A stretch of DNA of 64,000 bases from Vampirovibrionaceae bacterium NZW_1234. GTDB lineage: Bacteria > Cyanobacteriota > Vampirovibrionia > Vampirovibrionales > JAGQHJ01. The stretch covers positions 113,741 to 177,740 of the forward strand of contig JBGUGD010000001.1 in NCBI GenBank assembly GCA_041697335.1, written 5' to 3'. The position numbers were made by a program, and so were the translations under genes. How positions within the stretch are numbered: the first letter of the stretch is position 1; each line of letters starts with the position of its first letter. Positions 53,796-64,000 of the stretch are shown piece by piece. The notes under the pieces are model-generated. The model worked only from the letters and a program-made list of their open reading frames with translations, did not search any database and was not told the DNA's origin.

Positions 53796-55451
53796 TTAGG
53801 ATTTTGAAAAAGGCCACAGCCGACCCAAAGCCTGTCCCCAGCCCTTGAGCCAGCCCTTGTTCGCGGCCTGGGAAATTTGGTCGATGAGGTCAAAGCCTTG
53901 TTCTAATGTGGGAACCCGGTCCAGGAATTTCTGAATTTCCAGAATCCGTTTCATATCAATCACACGCGCCAGTGGCATCAGCTTCAGCAAGGGTTGTGCC
54001 GGATCGGTGAGTTGACGCAGGGCCTTTAGGTTTGCATTGGCATAGAGCCAGTTGTTGAGGTTGAATTCCAGACGTTCTTTTTCCGACTCGAGGGCGTGGG
54101 AACTGAATCCCAGATCTCGCCTTAGAAGGGCACGCTTGTTGCCAGGGGTACTGTAATACAGCCACAGTTCGGGGAGCAGATGCCGATCGGTCTTGGTGAT
54201 GTTGTGAATGTTATCTTGAAGCGCTTCCAGGGTCTCAACGGGTAAGGGTCGCCAGGTTTGGAAGGTCTGTTTCAGGAGGGCATTGCCTTGTTTCAGCAGG
54301 TCAAGAATCCGGTGACGATTGTTGACCTCCTGCTCAAGGGGTGTTCCTAAGGCTTCGGGAATGGGGATTTTAAAGCGTTGGCAATCGGCCTTTAGCTGTT
54401 CAAAGAACGGTGCTCTTAAGGACCGTTCTGCTTCAGCACATCGGACCTCGATGGGGGAAAAAAGATAAAAGAGACGTTTGCGTTGGGGTTGGGTGGCCAT
54501 GCCCAGCCGACATAGGGCTTGTTCCAGCTCGATTTGGAGTTGAGCGACCGGGTCTTTGGTGTCTTTCAAGTGGGCTTGGGTTGCTTGGGAAACCGGGAAC
54601 GGCAACTCCTGTCTGAGGGCCTTACGGCATGTCTGGTCAACCTGTTGTCGCGCATAGAAATAATGAAAGGCTTGGCGCAGTTCCTCAGGGGATAGCCTCG
54701 GATCCTCCAATGGCATCGGGAAATCCGGTCGGCTCCGGATGATGGCCTCAACGGATGGGAGCTTTAGAGTCCGAAAATCCAGATCATTCAGCTTCTCAAT
54801 AGTGGGGTTGGTGATGTAAGCCACAAAAAGCGTGAATAATTTGTTGAAGGTCTCTTCCGAGACCTTGGGCGGAGTGACACGCTGGTCGGTGACAAAGTCA
54901 TAGAAAGTTTCCGGGTATGGATGGAAAGCGTCGGACACGGTTTTGTAGGCCTTAATTCTGTCATGTTTTGCAAGTCGCCCCCGGAGTTCAGTGTCGGCTA
55001 CGGCATGTTCGTTTTCATGCAGCAAGACTTCAAGCGCTTCACCGCGGTTCAGAAGTGATTTGCATTGCACTGTGTGGGTTGTGATTAAATAATGGCCTTT
55101 GAGGTCCTCAAAAATACGTTCCGGCGTGTGGGCGCCATCCACGGCATCTTTCCAAATCACGTGCGGCATTTCATTGGGGGCAAGGCGGTTGCGGGCCATC
55201 AATTTCTTTAAAACAAATGCCGTTTCATCCGGATCTAACGATCCGGTGCCTGTGATTTTGAAGTCTTTTGAGGTGCCTGACGTTATTTCTCCCAGACTGA
55301 AGGTCCATGGTTTCGGAGTTGATTCGGCCTTCTTCTTTGGGCTTGCACCGAAGGTAACGGAATCGCACCTTCCCGGAGCCCGCATGCTGGGGTTCAGGTT
55401 GGGGGTCAGCATTGGTTTTTGCCAAGGTACGAGACTGAGGGACGAAATCAT
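53796..55451 (-). CDS. Hypothetical protein with HEXXH zinc-metalloprotease motif
   Basis: VLLHENEHA plus downstream YLFSPIEVRCAEAE as a candidate third-ligand motif. Confidence 0.7.
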   Translation of the reverse strand: MISSLSLVPWQKPMLTPNLNPSMRAPGRCDSVTFGASPKKKAESTPKPWTFSLGEITSGTSKDFKITGTGSLDPDETAFVLKKLMARNRLAPNEMPHVIWKDAVDGAHTPERIFEDLKGHYLITTHTVQCKSLLNRGEALEVLLHENEHAVADTELRGRLAKHDRIKAYKTVSDAFHPYPETFYDFVTDQRVTPPKVSEETFNKLFTLFVAYITNPTIEKLNDLDFRTLKLPSVEAIIRSRPDFPMPLEDPRLSPEELRQAFHYFYARQQVDQTCRKALRQELPFPVSQATQAHLKDTKDPVAQLQIELEQALCRLGMATQPQRKRLFYLFSPIEVRCAEAERSLRAPFFEQLKADCQRFKIPIPEALGTPLEQEVNNRHRILDLLKQGNALLKQTFQTWRPLPVETLEALQDNIHNITKTDRHLLPELWLYYSTPGNKRALLRRDLGFSSHALESEKERLEFNLNNWLYANANLKALRQLTDPAQPLLKLMPLARVIDMKRILEIQKFLDRVPTLEQGFDLIDQISQAANKGWLKGWGQALGRLWPFSKS

Positions 55452-55551: not shown

Positions 55552-57084
55552 TTATAAATTCCCGAGCAGGTAGTCAGGAATTCTCCGAAAACGTTTCGAT
55601 TTCATCATTTCGCCAGGATTGGGTAAATAGTTCGGCAGTTGCAGGGGCGTATCCGGTGTGTCATCCTTGAGCTGTCTTAACCCCAAGCACATGACGTCGG
55701 CCAAGGTAAGCGTGCTGTTTAGGTCTATGGCGTGTGGCTTGTGGAGTGTCCTAAAATTGCGGTCTTTTTCGACCAGGTAGCGACATAGCCCGACACTGTA
55801 AGTTTTCTTTGGATCGAGAGGAGCCCAATGGCCTGGGCGTTCTTCAACTTCAATGTTTTGGGCTTGGGGTCCGTGAAGGGTGAACCGCAGGCCGCTGAAA
55901 ATAAGAAAGGGCTTGTATAGGGGGGCGTTTAAATTTTGTGTGGATTGTTGCACCGCCAGGTTCAGTTCCTCACCGCTCAGGCGGATCCGGGTCAGGGGGT
56001 GTTGATAGGGCAGGGCCAGATCGACATCGATGGGGGTGATCTCACCTTGCAGGGCGCGTCTGAATTCGTTGGCGCGGATAATGCCAATTTGAGCCTGGGC
56101 TGCCTGGCGAGCCGAATGGGCCAGAAAATAGGGCTGGTTCAGAATCTCCATGGGGCTCAGGTCCTGCCCCAGTCGGGCCAATGTATCCGTGCGCTTGCCA
56201 TAGTGATGAAGGAGATCGACCACGGTCGGATCCATATCAAAGTTTCACGCGGCATGGAGCTTGTTTGCCTTAAAATGAATGCCATTTTCGCCCACAACGA
56301 TGTCGGCGACTCCGACCTTATCGGCAAAGGCACCGGCATTCAGGACAAGCAGGGGCTTGCCGTTGGGTTTTGTGAAAACGGTTTTGCCTTGGCGCAAGGT
56401 GTCTTTTCGGGTATGAGAGTGCCCCCCCATAATGACGTCGATGTCATTTGCCTGAACCGATTGGGTAAAGGCTGCGTCCCAGCGATAACCGCGATGGGAC
56501 ATCAGGATGACCAGTTTGACGCCTTGGGCTTTCAATTTTTGGGCCTGGGCCGCTATTTTTTTCACGGCAAATCGATCCTGAATGCCAAAGGAATGGGTTT
56601 GAATACTTTCGGCAGGGGCGTGAATGGAAATGAAGCCGTATTGGCCGTTGGCTTTGCTCACAATGAGGGGAGTGGTTTTAATTAAGCCCGCCTTGAGGAG
56701 CTGTTTATAGAGTGCATCGAGCGGTTTTTTCAGGGTTGTGCCCAAATACGCGGTTTTACCCCATTCCAGGAGGCGTCCTGCGAATTCTTGAAGAGGAAGG
56801 AGGGCTTCGTGATTGCCCAGGCACATGGAATCGAATCGGAACAGTTCGTTCAGGCGGATGTTTAATGGCCAGAATTGAGGGCTCATGCCGGTGTGCGTGT
56901 CGCCTGCATTGAGGCGAAGGACATCGTAGCCTTTTCGTTCGCCTTCCTGGGTGAAGTAATCCATTCCCGTCTTGTTTCGCGCGGCCAAGGGATAATTGCC
57001 ATGGATGTCGGTGTTATAAACCAGGCGAACTCGGGTGGGGGAGGCTGGCAAGCTTACACTAGCCGATATTCTAGGGGGGCTCAC
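55552..57084 (-). pseudogene. Metallophosphatase/5'-nucleotidase (UshA-like) interrupted by one in-frame TGA at 56245-56247
   Basis: N-part: NTDIHG, NAGD, GNHE, MSH, GGHSH. C-part: 5'-nucleotidase C domain (GEITPIDV, FSGLRF, PLDPKKTYSV). Both ORFs are in the same frame. Confidence 0.75.
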
Positions 57085-60005
57085 GCAGGGGATTCCTCAG
57101 GTGGGTGACTGTCCGGTAAGGCAGGCGAGTCTGACTTGAGCGGCTCGACACGGGCCACACGGGACAATTCAGCCGGGAGACTGCGGTAAAACTTTTCCAG
57201 AACGGTTCGGATGCCTTTGACGGTAATACTGTCGTCCGTTAAGCCCAGGTCTTTCTTGAGCCGCTGGGTCAGGGCTTCAGGGCGAAGTCTTTCGCCGATG
57301 CGAAGGTAGAGAATGCGTTTTTGAAAGCCGGTCAGGTTGGGCCATTCGGACCACTGGGTGAGTTGCTTCCATGGCTCTGTGGGTTTGAAACTGGCCGGAA
57401 CCACCACGTCAGGTACCAAAGAGTAAACGGCCTTACCTGTGTGCTGGGCTAAAATAGGAAACACCCGGCGAATGAACTCGGCATCGCTATAGGTTAGTAT
57501 CGCATCTCGTTCGGTCTCGTTGGGGATATGCTCAGTGACTAAATCCGTGAAGGCTTGCAGTTCTTTGACACAGCTTCGAACCATATTCTGGTAGCGCCGG
57601 TAGTCATCGGCAGGCATGGTTTTTTTCAAATTCTCTGCCTGAGGCAATTTGTCCAGGATTTGGCGTCGCTCCAGATTGAGGAAGAGGCGCATCCGATTGA
57701 GTAAGGGGTCTTCGGCCAGTCGTTTTAACAGGTAGGGGGCCGGGATATGGAACGGCCATTTGCCTCTTGTGGGATGAGATTTTGAAGGCTCGGGTGGGAC
57801 TGACGGCGTTTGGGGAATATCAGCTGCTTCACTCTCTCGGGTGATGGGCTCTGAAGTGATGGGGGGCACGGGTGAGGCCTCTTTTTGGAGGTCCTCGTAT
57901 AATACCTCTTCGGCTCGCCGCAGCAGTTCGATGGTCTTATGCCCCGCCATCGGCCATTGGGCGGTCCAGTCCTCCGGGTGTGTCAGCTGAAGTTGTTTGA
58001 GTCGGGCCAGCTCTGACTCGACGGCTGTTTTCGCAACCAGCCCTAGTTTTTGTACCAGGGGCTGTACGGCATCCGGGTTTGCGTCCAGATACAGAAGAAA
58101 TAACTTATGCGTGGTCGAATACCCCAAGGCGACAGACTGATCATCCATGGCGCGTTTTTTGAGGGGCTGCAGCTTCAGAAACCCGGTGCGGTAGAAATCG
58201 ACTTTCTGCGTGTAGGGTTGGGCCGAAGCCGTGATCTGTAATAGGCTGTCTGAATGTTTAATCAGGGCTTTATAACGCTTGTAGACTTTGTCCCGAGTGG
58301 CTCGAGGGAAGGTTTCCAAGTAACGTGGATTTTCCCCGAGGCCTAAGAGCACCTTTTGTTCCTGGGGCGAGAGAAAAGGGCGGAGCCACCCAAGTGGAAC
58401 AGTAAAGGGGGTTTGTAATGCTTTTTCCAGGACGGGTTGAAGCGTGGTGGATGATTGCTGGGCGCCTCGGGCTCGAAGCTCTAGGGCCACGCGTCGGCTC
58501 AACAGGGATTTAAATTGACCTTCGTCAAGTTGCTTAAAAGCCTCAGGCCTGGCTTGATAGGCTTGCTGCACCTGAGGAAGAAGAGAAGCACTGTCCAGCT
58601 CGGGAAGGAGCTTCTGTGCGTCAGCTTCATGCAGAAATTCGGGTGTTTTTGCGCTGCTTGTCTCCAGGGTGGAGTCCAAGTCCTGAAGACGAATGCCAAG
58701 GTCCTGGCTAATCTGCTTGGCGGAAAGCCCCAGGTGGTTGCCCAATGTAACGAGTTGAGCCTGCAAGTCCTGAGCGGGGTTGCCGGTGTAGGAAAACGCT
58801 CGTTTGAGGATGCTTTGAACGTCTCGGGTTCGATCCAGGATGTCGGGCTTTACGACAAAAGGGGTATTTTTCAGCTGATGACCCAGTTCCTGCAATAACG
58901 GTGGAAGATATGCCGGCAGGCGCTTTGGGTTCCAAAGAAGTTGTGCGGGCTGATGCTGTAGAAAGGCCAAATACGTTGAAAGAGCCAGAGCCTGGCCCGG
59001 ATTGAATCGATAGTGGATGACCTGGTAGGGGTGGAGGGGCTTTTCCAGAAGTCCCCGGAGTTTGTCTAAGGCACGTGTCTCCAATTGGCGTGAACGTTCT
59101 CGGGTGCGTCCGCCAATGGCTTTCCCTGCCTCGCCTAATGTCGCTTGTCCCGCCGCAGCCTGTGCCTCTGGAGGAAGCAGATTAAAGCGTTTTCGCAGGA
59201 TGAGGATTTCATTGGGGGTTAATAGGCCTGTGGGTTCGGCAATACCGATAATGCTTCGGAGGTGGGCTACCGTTTCGTCTTCAATGACATAATCTTCCGG
59301 TGCCTCTGTTTCGGTTGAGGCGGTTAATTCTTTTCTGGAGGAACTTTTTCCAGTGGAATTAGTGTCTAAAGGCGTATCCAGGGAAACACCCGGGGTGGGA
59401 CGGTTAAATCGGTGCTGAATTTCATAGGAGAGGTCTTGCTTTGCCAGGGTGTAAACATAATTGACCAGGGTGCCCTTGGAGTCGTTATAGGTCACAATCG
59501 CCCGGATGGCGGCCTGATAGGCTGTATTGAAACCGTGGTTTTTATATTCATCCAGATTCCACCCCTTGTCCAGTGCGAATGGAATACGTCTTTTCACACA
59601 GTGTCTGAGGATGGGCTCCATAACAGACAGGATCCCGTCAAATTGCCTTCCAGCTTCCGGATGCAGGCGTTTCCACTCATGAAACCCGGCCAGGTAAGCT
59701 TCTTTTTGGGTGAGGCTTTCACCTCCTTTGGTTGCTCTTCCTAGGCTCAGAAGGTGGCTTAATGCGTTAAAAGCATCAGCGTGTTCTTGGGCCATTTGGG
59801 AAAGCGATGCTTGACTGGCGGCTTCGATGTCCACCTGGTATGTCTTCTTCACGCCCGAGGTGTTGTTATCTCCGATTCCGGATTGACGCGCGGATTTTTG
59901 ACGCGCCTTGGCCCCGGCGAAGTAAACCGGATGACCCGCAATGGAACTGAGTCGAGGAGGAACCATGACAGAAACGGTATCCACAATCATTGATCTTGGG
60001 TTCAA
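57081..60005 (-). CDS. Large sigma70-family-like protein (regions 2, 3.2 and 4 plus ~650-aa extension)
   Basis: AIRAIVTYNDSKGTLVNYVYTLAKQ (region 2-like), VSLDTPL, LTPNEILILRKRF..TLGEAGKAIGGRTRERSRQLETRALDKLR (region 4). Confidence 0.8.
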   Translation of the reverse strand: MNPRSMIVDTVSVMVPPRLSSIAGHPVYFAGAKARQKSARQSGIGDNNTSGVKKTYQVDIEAASQASLSQMAQEHADAFNALSHLLSLGRATKGGESLTQKEAYLAGFHEWKRLHPEAGRQFDGILSVMEPILRHCVKRRIPFALDKGWNLDEYKNHGFNTAYQAAIRAIVTYNDSKGTLVNYVYTLAKQDLSYEIQHRFNRPTPGVSLDTPLDTNSTGKSSSRKELTASTETEAPEDYVIEDETVAHLRSIIGIAEPTGLLTPNEILILRKRFNLLPPEAQAAAGQATLGEAGKAIGGRTRERSRQLETRALDKLRGLLEKPLHPYQVIHYRFNPGQALALSTYLAFLQHQPAQLLWNPKRLPAYLPPLLQELGHQLKNTPFVVKPDILDRTRDVQSILKRAFSYTGNPAQDLQAQLVTLGNHLGLSAKQISQDLGIRLQDLDSTLETSSAKTPEFLHEADAQKLLPELDSASLLPQVQQAYQARPEAFKQLDEGQFKSLLSRRVALELRARGAQQSSTTLQPVLEKALQTPFTVPLGWLRPFLSPQEQKVLLGLGENPRYLETFPRATRDKVYKRYKALIKHSDSLLQITASAQPYTQKVDFYRTGFLKLQPLKKRAMDDQSVALGYSTTHKLFLLYLDANPDAVQPLVQKLGLVAKTAVESELARLKQLQLTHPEDWTAQWPMAGHKTIELLRRAEEVLYEDLQKEASPVPPITSEPITRESEAADIPQTPSVPPEPSKSHPTRGKWPFHIPAPYLLKRLAEDPLLNRMRLFLNLERRQILDKLPQAENLKKTMPADDYRRYQNMVRSCVKELQAFTDLVTEHIPNETERDAILTYSDAEFIRRVFPILAQHTGKAVYSLVPDVVVPASFKPTEPWKQLTQWSEWPNLTGFQKRILYLRIGERLRPEALTQRLKKDLGLTDDSITVKGIRTVLEKFYRSLPAELSRVARVEPLKSDSPALPDSHPPEESPA

Positions 60006-60033: not shown

Positions 60034-60630
60034 CTAACTGTTTTGAGACTCGCGTGATACTAATGAAACGGCCTCATCCACCCATGTTGACATGTTCTGG
60101 GTGCCGTTGTCGTTAACCCAGTCATAGGTTTTAAAGAAATGGGACAGGCGCGCGCCGTCGGTATTTTCAATGGGTAAGGTCAAATTCTCAATGGCTGTCT
60201 CTCCGCAGCGTTTCCACTCGTTGGCCCACTCGTGCAGGTCGACTCGAAAATTTTGCCGATCGACGTAAAAGCCTACGTAATCCAAAGGATTTTCTCCTAA
60301 GGGCAAGGTGTTGCCCTTGATATCAGGAAGACTGTTAATGTGAATGCCAACAATCGCGTTGCCACGAGCCAGACTTTGTAACAGTTCATAGCGAACCCAG
60401 CGTCGTTTGAAGGTGTTGGTGCCAATCAAGACAAACGTTAGTTGAGTATGATTCAGTCCCGTATCGATCAAAGCCATGGTGGCCGCATCCCCATTTTCGG
60501 CTCGCTCCTCCCAGGTGTCCGGGTCCCAGAAGCCGGCCGCCTCAGAACCGGGGAAAGAAAGCCAATGGCTTCGGATCTGATTGACACGCCAGATATCGGG
60601 TTGATAGTGAAAGCAAAAGTAGGCACGCAT
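60034..60630 (-). CDS. TIR-domain protein (ThsB/DUF1863-like)
   Basis: YFCFHY..DIWRVNQIR, GFWD..WE, VLIGTNTFKRRWVRYEL (catalytic Glu), GNAIVGIHIN. Confidence 0.88.
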   Translation of the reverse strand: MRAYFCFHYQPDIWRVNQIRSHWLSFPGSEAAGFWDPDTWEERAENGDAATMALIDTGLNHTQLTFVLIGTNTFKRRWVRYELLQSLARGNAIVGIHINSLPDIKGNTLPLGENPLDYVGFYVDRQNFRVDLHEWANEWKRCGETAIENLTLPIENTDGARLSHFFKTYDWVNDNGTQNMSTWVDEAVSLVSRESQNS

Positions 60631-61874: not shown

Positions 61875-64000
61875 ATGCCCACCATCACAGGAACGTCAGG
61901 GAACGACTTTTTAGAAGGCTCATCAGGAAATGACACACTTCTTGGTCTGGCAGGGAATGATGTTTTAGTTGGTGATACTGGTAATGATAGTTTAGATGGT
62001 GGTGCCGGCGCTGATCAAATGTATGGCGGTGACGGTAACGACACCTATGTTGTTGATAATGTTGGCGATATCGTTAATGAGTACGCAAATGAAGGGACGG
62101 ATACGGTTCGCTCAAGTATTACCTATGAATTGACCGATCATGTGGAGCATTTGATCCTGACGGGTACAGGTAATATTCATGGCACAGGGAATGATCTGAA
62201 CAACTCCTTGACGGGTAATGCTGGCAATAATACCTTAGACGGTGGCTTAGGTGCTGATACCATGGCCGGGGGCGCTGGTAATGATGTTTATATCGTGGAT
62301 GATGCCGGTGATGTTGTTACGGAATTGGCGAACCAAGGGGTTGATACGGTACGTTCCGAAGTCAGCTTTAGCTTGGGTGCAAACATCGAAAATTTGGTTT
62401 TAACGGGCACCGATGATACCAATGCCACCGGTAATGGCTTGGCCAACTCATTAACAGGTAACAGTGGTAGCAACACCCTGGATGGGGGTGCCGGTGCTGA
62501 TACCATGGCCGGGGGTGACGGTGATGATATCTATGTGGTTGACAATGCCGCGGATGTGGTGACGGAACAAGCGAACCAGGGTATTGATACGGTTCGCTCC
62601 AGTGTGACTTTTACTCTGGGTAACAATATTGAAAATTTAGTTTTGACTGGGTCAGCCAGTGTGAATGCAACCGGCAACAGCTTGGCCAATTCCCTAACCG
62701 GCAATAGCGGAAATAATTTGCTTGATGGTGGAACAGGTGCTGATACCATGGCCGGGGGTGACGGCAATGATACCTATGTGGTGGATAACGCCGGTGATGT
62801 CATTACAGAGAATGCCAACGAAGGGACGGATACGGTTCGGGCCAGTGTGAGCTATTCCTTGGGTGATCACCTGGAGAACTTGGTATTAACCGGGATCGGT
62901 AACACCAATGCTACGGGGAATGCCCTGGGCAACTCCTTGACCGGTAATACCGGTAATAACACCCTGGATGGAGGGACCGGTGCGGACACCATGATTGGTG
63001 GCCTCGGCAATGATACCTACATCGTGGATGATGCCGGGGATGTGGTGACGGAACTGGCCAATCAAGGGACCGACACGGTTCGGGCCAGTATTTCGTACAG
63101 CTTGGGCACCAACATGGAGCACTTGGTGTTGACGGGTAGTGGTAACATCAATGCGACAGGGAATGCCGGAGCCAACTCTTTGGCCGGTAACAGCGGCAAT
63201 AACTCCCTGGATGGTGGAGCAGGCGCTGATACCATGGCTGGGGGCGACGGTGACGATACCTATGTGGTGGACAACGCCGCTGATGTGGTGACAGAGAGTG
63301 CCAACGAAGGGACCGATACGGTTCGGGCCAGTGTTTCCTACAGCTTGGGTAACCACCTGGAAAACTTAACCTTGACCGGCACGGCTGCCATTAATGCCAC
63401 CGGTAACGCTTTGGCAAATACCCTGACGGGTAACAGCGGCAACAACACCCTGGATGGGGGCGCTGGTGCCGATACCATGATTGGTGGCCTCGGCAACGAC
63501 ACCTATGTGGTGGACAATGTCGGTGATGTCATTACGGAGAATGCTAACGAAGGAACGGATACGGTTCGTGCCAGTGCAAGTTATTCTTTGGGTGACCACC
63601 TGGAGCACTTGGTTTTAACCGGAACCGGTAACACCAATGCTACGGGGAATGCCCTGGGTAACTCCTTGACCGGCAACAGCGGCAACAACACCCTCGATGG
63701 CGATGTTGGTGCAGACACCATGGCTGGCGGCCTCGGCAATGATACCTATGTGGTAGACAATGCCAGTGATGTGGTAACGGAACTGGCCAACCAAGGGACC
63801 GACACGGTTCGGGCCAGTGTGAGCTATAGCTTGGGCTTGAATGTTGAACATTTGGTATTAACCGGTAGCGGTAACATCAATGCGACAGGGAATGCCGGAG
63901 CCAACTCTTTGACCGGTAACAGCGGCAACAACACCCTGGATGGTGGAGCAGGCGCTGATACCATGGCCGGGGGCGACGGTGACGATACCTATGTGGTGGA
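61875..64000 (+). CDS. RTX / hemolysin-type Ca2+-binding repeat protein (5' part, runs off the window)
   Basis: ATG at 61875 after AGGAG; open to the window end; GGxGxDxL nonapeptides in 81-aa units (DTYVVD..GD.V.E.A..GTDTV). Missing from the ORF track because it has no stop. Confidence 0.93.
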   Translation, partial: MPTITGTSGNDFLEGSSGNDTLLGLAGNDVLVGDTGNDSLDGGAGADQMYGGDGNDTYVVDNVGDIVNEYANEGTDTVRSSITYELTDHVEHLILTGTGNIHGTGNDLNNSLTGNAGNNTLDGGLGADTMAGGAGNDVYIVDDAGDVVTELANQGVDTVRSEVSFSLGANIENLVLTGTDDTNATGNGLANSLTGNSGSNTLDGGAGADTMAGGDGDDIYVVDNAADVVTEQANQGIDTVRSSVTFTLGNNIENLVLTGSASVNATGNSLANSLTGNSGNNLLDGGTGADTMAGGDGNDTYVVDNAGDVITENANEGTDTVRASVSYSLGDHLENLVLTGIGNTNATGNALGNSLTGNTGNNTLDGGTGADTMIGGLGNDTYIVDDAGDVVTELANQGTDTVRASISYSLGTNMEHLVLTGSGNINATGNAGANSLAGNSGNNSLDGGAGADTMAGGDGDDTYVVDNAADVVTESANEGTDTVRASVSYSLGNHLENLTLTGTAAINATGNALANTLTGNSGNNTLDGGAGADTMIGGLGNDTYVVDNVGDVITENANEGTDTVRASASYSLGDHLEHLVLTGTGNTNATGNALGNSLTGNSGNNTLDGDVGADTMAGGLGNDTYVVDNASDVVTELANQGTDTVRASVSYSLGLNVEHLVLTGSGNINATGNAGANSLTGNSGNNTLDGGAGADTMAGGDGDDTYVV
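61990..64000 (+). repeat. 243-bp tandem coding repeats (8 or more copies)
   Basis: GAD(T/Q)M anchor at 62007, 62250, 62493, 62736 and onward to 63951. Confidence 0.92.

Follow-up and report, generated by a model that had tools for sequence, protein, structure and literature searches.

To our knowledge, sigma factors are regarded as working solely within the cell whose genome encodes them, or in a plastid once imported from that organism's nucleus; sigma-appropriating proteins are known from phages, e.g. T4 gp55 and AsiA. We analyzed a 64,000-nucleotide stretch of DNA (the window; contig JBGUGD010000001.1, positions 113,741 to 177,740, assembly GCA_041697335.1) from Vampirovibrionaceae bacterium NZW_1234 (genome G000). 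One open reading frame (ORF) in it, the sigma ORF, encodes a real, modular variant of the sigma70 family for which we found no earlier description, in a setting for protein export that is plausible but unproven.

The sigma ORF resembles several described systems in part. Group 1/2 sigma70 factors (RpoD, RpoS, SigB-like) share its sigma-3.2 finger, region 4 and T-R-E-R-x-R-Q recognition helix, but the sigma ORF has no match to region 1.1/1.2, lacks domain 3 and the tryptophan dyad, has an altered region 2.2, and adds an N-terminal leader and a 650-residue tail. Extracytoplasmic function (ECF, group 4) sigmas, some with C-terminal extensions, are described as having the same compact sigma-2/linker/sigma-4 layout without the dyad (10.1101/534826), whereas the linker and region 4 of the sigma ORF are of the group 1/2 type, its tail is predicted to hold helix-turn-helix (HTH) domains, TIGR02937 and the ECF models give no match at E up to 1, and no anti-sigma neighbor was seen. 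Phage-encoded sigmas (PHROG 351, which matches amino acids (aa) 163–322) are likewise foreign sigma-like proteins that redirect a host polymerase; they are, however, made in the infected cell from phage DNA, whereas here the gene is chromosomal, has native codon use, and delivery of the protein itself is proposed.

The initial annotation called the product an atypical sigma70-family protein with a well-preserved region 4, and both descriptions hold. Pfam Sigma70_r4 matches aa 262–317 (E 1.2e-4, 22 bits by hmmscan, below the 24.1 cut-off; 25.8 bits, above it, in a genome-wide search), as it does the homolog P0008 (30.3 bits), and NCBIfam RpoS/RpoD C-terminal models span aa 200–322, including the 3.2 finger (E 1.7e-6). 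The best NCBIfam and PDB matches of the linker and region 4 are group 1/2 sigmas (SigA/RpoS), and the recognition helix, the element that reads the −35 promoter sequence, retains the R-E-x-x-R-Q pattern of SigA. Pfam Sigma70_r2 gives no match in the sigma ORF. By remote homology, a region 2 domain is nonetheless probably present, since three approaches agree: ESM Atlas clusters carrying Sigma70_r2 (0.95–0.96), a local alignment against a profile of 26 sigma-2 rows (E 0.0022, with an HH probability of only 12.9% and a score reached by 0 of 40 column shuffles), and the PHROG 351 match. When the sequence was forced into a global alignment with canonical sigmas, the result was 98.9%, most of it owed to the C-terminal part. 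Region 3 had been described as mostly missing; domain 3 is indeed absent (a gap in the profile alignment and no Pfam r3 match), but the 3.2 finger, VSLDTPL, is kept. Regions 1.1 and 1.2 found no match, Pfam r1_2 included.

No tryptophan occurs in aa 174–200, and the dyad is not restored in either alignment register, i.e. the gap-free one used earlier or that of the local profile, which are offset by 3 residues. Region 2.2 reads DEYKNHG here and EEFTGHG in the homolog, versus DLIQEG in primary sigmas, and is followed by a 4-residue insertion. The reading of YVYTLAKQ as a degenerate melting motif marking a decoy is not supported, because ECF sigmas that lack both the dyad and domain 3 still initiate, with the linker serving as the 3.2 finger, according to that account, which also describes the residues contacting the core (clamp) as conserved across sigmas (10.1101/534826); against this background, the altered region 2.2 says more than the missing dyad. 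Region 2.2-2.3 and sigma-4 are the parts best conserved relative to P0003 (58% identity over aa 146–183, i.e. region 2.2-2.3, against 41% for sigma-2 as a whole; 62% for sigma-4; 34–41% elsewhere). Core RNA polymerase binding and initiation are putative functions of the sigma ORF. A whole-protein single-sequence AlphaFold model (predicted local distance difference test score, pLDDT, of 37) was not used.

A HMMER scan over all 1.84 billion representatives yielded six proteins, three of them, including an identical fragment, at E <1e-30, and these reveal a modular build. P0003/P0008 shows 40% identity over aa 71–443 and then continues in a different tail; P0002 (534 aa; 35% identity over aa 498–955) stands alone, carries an FG leader of its own and has no sigma core, and the fragment P0006 resembles P0002 and has its own leader. 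No full-length ortholog was found in 40 relatives, a profile of the N-terminal module found none in 48 genomes of the order (only region 3.2-4 was matched), and the C-terminal module was found in none of the 400 other genomes searched from the class. Word-indexed protein searches returned nothing or P0003 only, and two metagenome scans returned no relative. The 974-aa ORF is a natural fusion of two modules and not an assembly or sequencing error, because a separately assembled Logan contig from run X1, which may come from the source sample, covers the junction (58364–58819) with no differing letters and no gaps, and because each half is found alone in other leader-bearing proteins. Every motif quoted in the initial annotation was found in the translation of this real ORF, and the run X1 contig excludes the fused sequencing error that the annotation had considered for the extension.

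The tail is predicted to be all-helical, with two sigma-4/HTH-like domains. An AlphaFold model of the C-terminal module from a three-row alignment (pLDDT 67.7) is helical throughout. In VIA structure comparisons, aa 536–593 matched sigma-4 domains (Z 6.5 to SigF and Fusobacterium sigma-H, 6.4 to sigma-28, and 5.9–6.5 over all such matches, which also include SigR, SigD, and sigma-E), and aa 877–957 matched SigA domain 4 (4g6d, Z 6.0), Fur/LuxR-type HTHs (5.5–5.7) and BrxC (6.4); these values are middling, no chain reached Z 8, the matches may reflect merely common arrangements, and the search hardly tested parts of the model outside 85–142 and 426–506. Hidden Markov models (HMMs) gave weak, inconsistent results for the three extra modules: aa 536–593 scored 6.4 bits against a region-4 repeat HMM and aa 395–455 a weak 4.6 bits against a region-4 HMM (reached by 0 of 300 shuffles in both cases; the true region 4 scores 31.2 bits), and for aa 885–950, 64 of 300 shuffles equaled the score with the canonical region-4 model, whereas with the repeat model 1 of 300 did. 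A profile of the P0008 tail repeats gave no good match to any of the three. Thus, of the three additional region-4/HTH-like pieces proposed earlier, those at aa 536–593 and 877–957 gained a structural match and that at aa 395–455 a weak HMM score only. Identity to P0002 is 46% in the terminal HTH and 3 of 22 aligned residues in the linker at aa 706–748. Foldseek with the C-terminal module model, a comparison proposed for the extension at the outset, returned nothing at E up to 0.001 (PDB, BFVD); a profile search of the PDB found nothing, and ESM Atlas gave only 0.82 for the C-terminal half.

The low-acid leader ending VYFAG, as first described, is confirmed, and it is a weak member of a large family in G000, described as a Ser/Pro/Thr-rich stretch ending [PV]RF[GS]. 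RFG occurs 23–32 times per 10-residue bin at aa 10–49 versus 0–10 times at aa 80–199 (2246 ORFs). An iterated leader matrix is passed by 399 of 3073 G000 ORFs, ∼340 above chance, at a threshold set so that 48 of 2376 interior windows pass; the ORF set behind the leader and paralog counts is a greedy gene set that had dropped the second FlhB. The same threshold is reached by 27 of 959 ORFs of unrelated bacteria and by 1 of 176 ORFs from Vampirovibrionia FlhA loci, where FG-type leaders of other composition were seen by eye. The motif is a protein-level feature, because codon use at it matches that of the genome; an origin at the DNA level was rejected on this ground. N-terminal hydrophobic stretches are depleted (41 of 399 leader ORFs versus 625 of 2674).

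Many strong leader proteins (75 of 333) have a leaderless paralog, and leader-bearing second copies exist of FtsH, Lon, ClpP, ClpC, DegP, S1, a release factor, citrate synthase, biotin carboxylase, and PurA (named from sequence, not by family scan). We scanned 153 of the 274 proteins scoring ≥11 bits, a few of which are false leaders; 91 had no Pfam match and 62 had one. The matches represent functions of bacterial type (FtsH, Lon, ClpP, ClpB/C, DegP, S1, release factor, RtcB, citrate synthase, biotin carboxylase, β-oxidation enzymes, Ppx, NAD synthetase, and SpoVR); TPR and HEAT repeats also occur, together with one weak match of calpain-like type. Many of these functions also occur in organelles, so a plastid target is conceivable. 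None of the 153 belongs to an ankyrin, F-box, SET, or ubiquitin-system family, and the leader proteins show no clear enrichment of nuclear localization signals (NLS) or of the peroxisomal targeting signal PTS1. The leader may be an export signal.

A candidate machine is encoded in the same genome. Beside its flagellar genes, G000 has a second export set comprising FlhA, FliI, FliH, FliF, FlgB/C/F/G, FliP, FliR, and FlhB, with a FliA-like sigma lacking domain 3 following the second FlhB. At least two FlhB matches occur in 5 of 5 genomes tested. The 13 best loci for the second FlhA share 62–67% identity and carry titles that include Vampirovibrio sp., Gastranaerophilales, and Melainabacteria, some being uninformative or discordant, and the other 67 loci reach ≤51%. 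These loci place the organism in the class Vampirovibrionia, and the suggestion that it is Vampirovibrio-like stands to that extent, although this does not place it in the genus Vampirovibrio; no genome of the same genus was present among those searched. Early flagellar substrates carry an N-terminal signal of the uncleaved type with a small hydrophobic motif near residues 36–40 that is read by FlhB (PMC8983047). By analogy, the second apparatus may read the [PV]RF[GS] leader; however, the latter lies in a Ser/Pro/Thr-rich stretch and occurs on hundreds of non-flagellar proteins, and it is a putative equivalent of the gate recognition motif. The predation model for Vampirovibrio chlorellavorus, a member of the same class, also proposes protein delivery into prey, but through a type IV system, and no VirB4 was found in G000; the terms “type III”, “T3SS”, and “sigma” do not occur in the main text of that study (PMC4451040). 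As judged from the openings of abstracts, our searches of open PMC and bioRxiv papers turned up neither this leader, nor a second type III-like system in Vampirovibrionia, nor a sigma that is exported, nor this family of modular sigmas; annotation tables in supplements could nevertheless list these genes.

The sigma ORF is one of nine odd sigmas with leader-like tags in four genomes of the family (G000, G001, G003, and G004); G002, which is 56% complete, showed none. The 1078- and 719-aa sigmas of G000 have orthologs in G003 (L159 and L160) that share 23–25% identity and keep FG leaders, L160 being, like the 719-aa sigma, of group 1/2 type with large insertions and an intact region 2.3. G004 has odd sigmas of 979 and 776 aa, and G001 of 654 and 388 aa. 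Tandem region-4 repeats characterize L016 (G000), L159 (G003), and L261 (G001), of 654–1088 aa, and regions 2.2–2.4 are nearly intact in the 719-aa G000 sigma and in L259 and L262. The leader sigmas diverge fast and swap tails. G000 additionally encodes eight leaderless full-length sigmas, of which the FliA-like ones likewise have no Pfam r2 match. With P0008 included, the ten odd sigmas have leader scores of 4.4–19.0 and 17 of 17 ordinary sigmas score ≤6.1. A simple leader rule passes 8 of 10 odd versus 1 of 17 ordinary sigmas, although both the rule and the groups were chosen once the data were known and related proteins do not count as independent, which weighs against the export reading; moving L262, called odd partly for its leader, gives 7 of 9 versus 2 of 18 (by hand), and L269 and L161–L167 were left out of the comparison, L163 scoring highest of those sigma frames at 4.4. 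TIGR02937, a model that also misses the sigma ORF, found no sigma frame >450 aa in six genomes of a sister family. Three side observations concern sigmas of the order. A KKRKV motif directly follows the leader of L017 and was set aside since NLS are not clearly enriched in leader proteins. L163 (G005) and L164 (G017), from another family of the order, are SigA-like sigmas of 600–624 aa with a common unknown N-terminal domain. L161 (G181:C27), from another genome of the order, is an RpoD of proteobacterial type and probably contamination.

We tentatively favor the sigma ORF being an exported, sigma-derived effector that acts on a bacterial-type RNA polymerase elsewhere. The export idea, first raised as an exported sigma mimic, is strengthened independently by the leader family, by the second export apparatus and by the tagged sigmas across the family. 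The leader would route the protein through the second apparatus into a cell or compartment with a bacterial-type RNA polymerase, most simply a prey or host bacterium and less likely a plastid. There, sigma-4 would grip the flap and read sigma70-type −35 elements, the remodeled sigma-2 and the finger would dock in ECF fashion, and the extra HTHs may add DNA contacts; resident sigmas would be displaced and transcription redirected or choked, while co-exported proteases, translation factors, and metabolic enzymes would remodel the same cytoplasm. The wider proposal, that a Vampirovibrionales family injects a repertoire of tagged sigmas through a flagellum-derived type III machine to reprogram transcription in prey or host (a cyanobacterium, another bacterium, or a plastid) alongside such exported proteases, translation factors, and metabolic enzymes, is possible but doubtful. 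The plastid or algal target of the initial annotation is improbable, and nothing favors it over bacterial prey: the runs holding the gene are labeled hot spring or microbial mat, the ankyrin, F-box, SET, and ubiquitin-system families are missing from the scanned leader proteins, and the organism's placement does not extend to the genus Vampirovibrio. At least half of the gene's words were present in 4 of 11 runs listed, all so labeled, which may be one data set filed twice, and no RNA data set was among the runs listed as holding the gene.

Several observations weigh against export. The leader of the sigma ORF scores 8.2 bits with itself left out, at the threshold, and 2.0% of interior control windows reach this value (P0008, P0006, and P0002 score 19.0, 8.8, and 6.8 bits, respectively); 3 of the 10 odd sigmas fall below the threshold, as does the 1078-aa sigma when left out of training (7.2 bits). 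G000 (94.75% complete) yielded a single NAD synthetase (NadE) and a single SpoVR, and both bear strong leaders; a leader thus does not have to imply that export is obligatory. The second FlhA scores 678 bits as FlhA versus 586 as SctV, both below cut-off, and is conserved across Vampirovibrionia, gut Gastranaerophilales included, and hence is not predator-specific. The usual Gln-Glu pair of region 2.2 is missing in both homologs, and a ThsB-like TIR gene and an overlapping split nucleotidase belong to the same run of same-strand genes as the sigma gene.

Rather unlikely, though the strongest alternative, is an endogenous alternative sigma with an ECF-like layout and a long regulatory tail, whose leader would be a pro-peptide, a localization or turnover tag, or a signal targeting an internal developmental compartment. 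Sigmas bearing pro-peptides are known in Bacillus (pro-sigmaE/K). The leader-bearing sole copies of NadE and SpoVR fit this proposal, as do the leaderless FliA-like sigmas that also escape the Pfam r2 model and the native codon use of the gene, whose GC content at third codon positions (0.562) equals the median of long leaderless genes of G000; a recent horizontal gain of the gene is not indicated. Sigma-2, finger and sigma-4 together are also a working layout in the ECF account (10.1101/534826). However, G000 already has its eight leaderless full-length sigmas, no ortholog was found in 48 genomes of the order, nor the C-terminal module in 400 of the class, and the leader sigmas diverge fast and exchange tails. 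As to an anti-sigma candidate, the neighbors comprise the TIR protein, the split 5′-nucleotidase and a 551-aa protein without a family.

It is unlikely that the sigma ORF is instead a multi-HTH DNA-binding protein or partial decoy, exported or not, whose sigma-2 no longer docks productively on the β′ clamp and which, through sigma-4 and the extra HTHs, represses −35-type promoters or blocks the flap. The altered region 2.2 with its insertion, the leader-bearing P0002, which is the C-terminal module without a sigma core, and the prevalence of region-4 repeats in related proteins would suit such a role. Nevertheless, region 2.2-2.3 is better conserved between the homologs than its neighboring parts, the 3.2 finger is kept, and the 719-aa sigma, L259 and L262 retain regions 2.2–2.4 nearly intact.

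That the protein is the effector of a TIR-triggered anti-phage system with the ThsB-like gene and the nucleotidase is very improbable. Its gene lies 28 bases from the same-strand TIR gene and overlaps the nucleotidase start, and NCBIfam includes a defense-associated sigma, MzaA. Yet MzaA reaches 15 bits where the cut-off is 800, PADLOC matched only the TIR gene among 7 proteins scanned and nothing for the sigma ORF, P0008, or P0002, a ThsA-type effector as in Thoeris was absent among five window proteins scanned, and the ORF starts listed around the other two odd sigmas gave no sign of a TIR gene (by list, not by family scan). Two genes merged by an assembly or sequencing error, to which the stand-alone occurrence of the C-terminal half might point, is an explanation of negligible probability, largely refuted by the run X1 contig and by the alignment, which places no internal leader at the junction.

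Coordinates of the sigma ORF, its parts, its neighbors and related loci are given in the table. The 279-aa half of the split nucleotidase overlaps the sigma stop and starts with a Ser/Pro-rich stretch without an FG motif.

Table. Features of the sigma ORF, its neighborhood and related loci (window positions unless a genome handle is given)
Feature	Position	Strand	Remarks
Whole sigma ORF	57081–60005	−	974 aa from TTG
Probable start, ATG	59990	−	969 aa; database entry P0009 begins at Met6
Acid-poor leader ending P-V-Y-F-A-G	59913–59990	−	Weak member of G000 [PV]RF[GS] family
Divergent sigma-2, aa 121–200	59406–59645	−	Probable, by remote homology; no tryptophan dyad, altered region 2.2
Linker, aa 201–258	59232–59405	−	Group 1/2-type sigma-3.2 finger; no domain 3
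RpoD/RpoS-type sigma-4, aa 259–318	59052–59231	−	−35 recognition helix T-R-E-R-S-R-Q
Helical region, aa 319–446	58668–59051	−	Common to P0003/P0008; ends in weak HTH-like piece, aa 426–438
C-terminal module, aa ∼463–957	57135–58619	−	Predicted all-helical; separate protein elsewhere (P0002; fragment P0006)
Sigma-4-like HTH domain (predicted), aa 536–593	58227–58400	−	VIA structure match
Pro/Thr/Glu-rich linker, aa 706–748	57762–57890	−	Low confidence, pLDDT <50
Terminal HTH domain (predicted), aa 877–957	57135–57377	−	VIA structure match
ThsB-like TIR gene, lone	60034–60630	−	Ends 28 bases upstream of sigma TTG
Split 5′-nucleotidase	55552–57084	−	279-aa metallophosphoesterase half and 227-aa C-terminal half
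551-aa leader-bearing protein	53796–55451	−	HENEH metallopeptidase-like motif; no Pfam, NCBIfam, or PADLOC family
Large RTX-like Gly/Asn/Asp repeat protein	61875–64000	+	Runs off contig end
Second export set	G000:C32:10110–20950; C8:66046–69954; C29:178739–180600		FlhA, FliI, FliH, FliF, rod; FliP, FliR; FlhB
Sole NAD synthetase; sole SpoVR and adjacent DUF444 gene	G000:C14:96263–98695; C5:198089–201952		Strong leaders
L016, 1078-aa sigma	G000:C8:33258–36494		Leader; tandem region-4 repeats
L017, 719-aa sigma	G000:C2:10943–13102		Leader; group 1/2-type, intact regions 2.2–2.4, large insertions
L260, ECF-type sigma (G004)	L260:1162–3492		Leader-tagged; then GntR-like winged-helix repeats

If the favored reading of an exported effector is true, an exported sigma would be a new effector class; under the wider proposal, a living cell would be taken over by delivering proteins, as phages do by delivering genes. 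The feeding of Vampirovibrionia would be recast, with the prey cytoplasm being run rather than only dissolved. Even if export proves wrong, the analysis exposes a leader on about a tenth of the proteome, a class-wide second flagellar-type export machine, and a modular sigma family.

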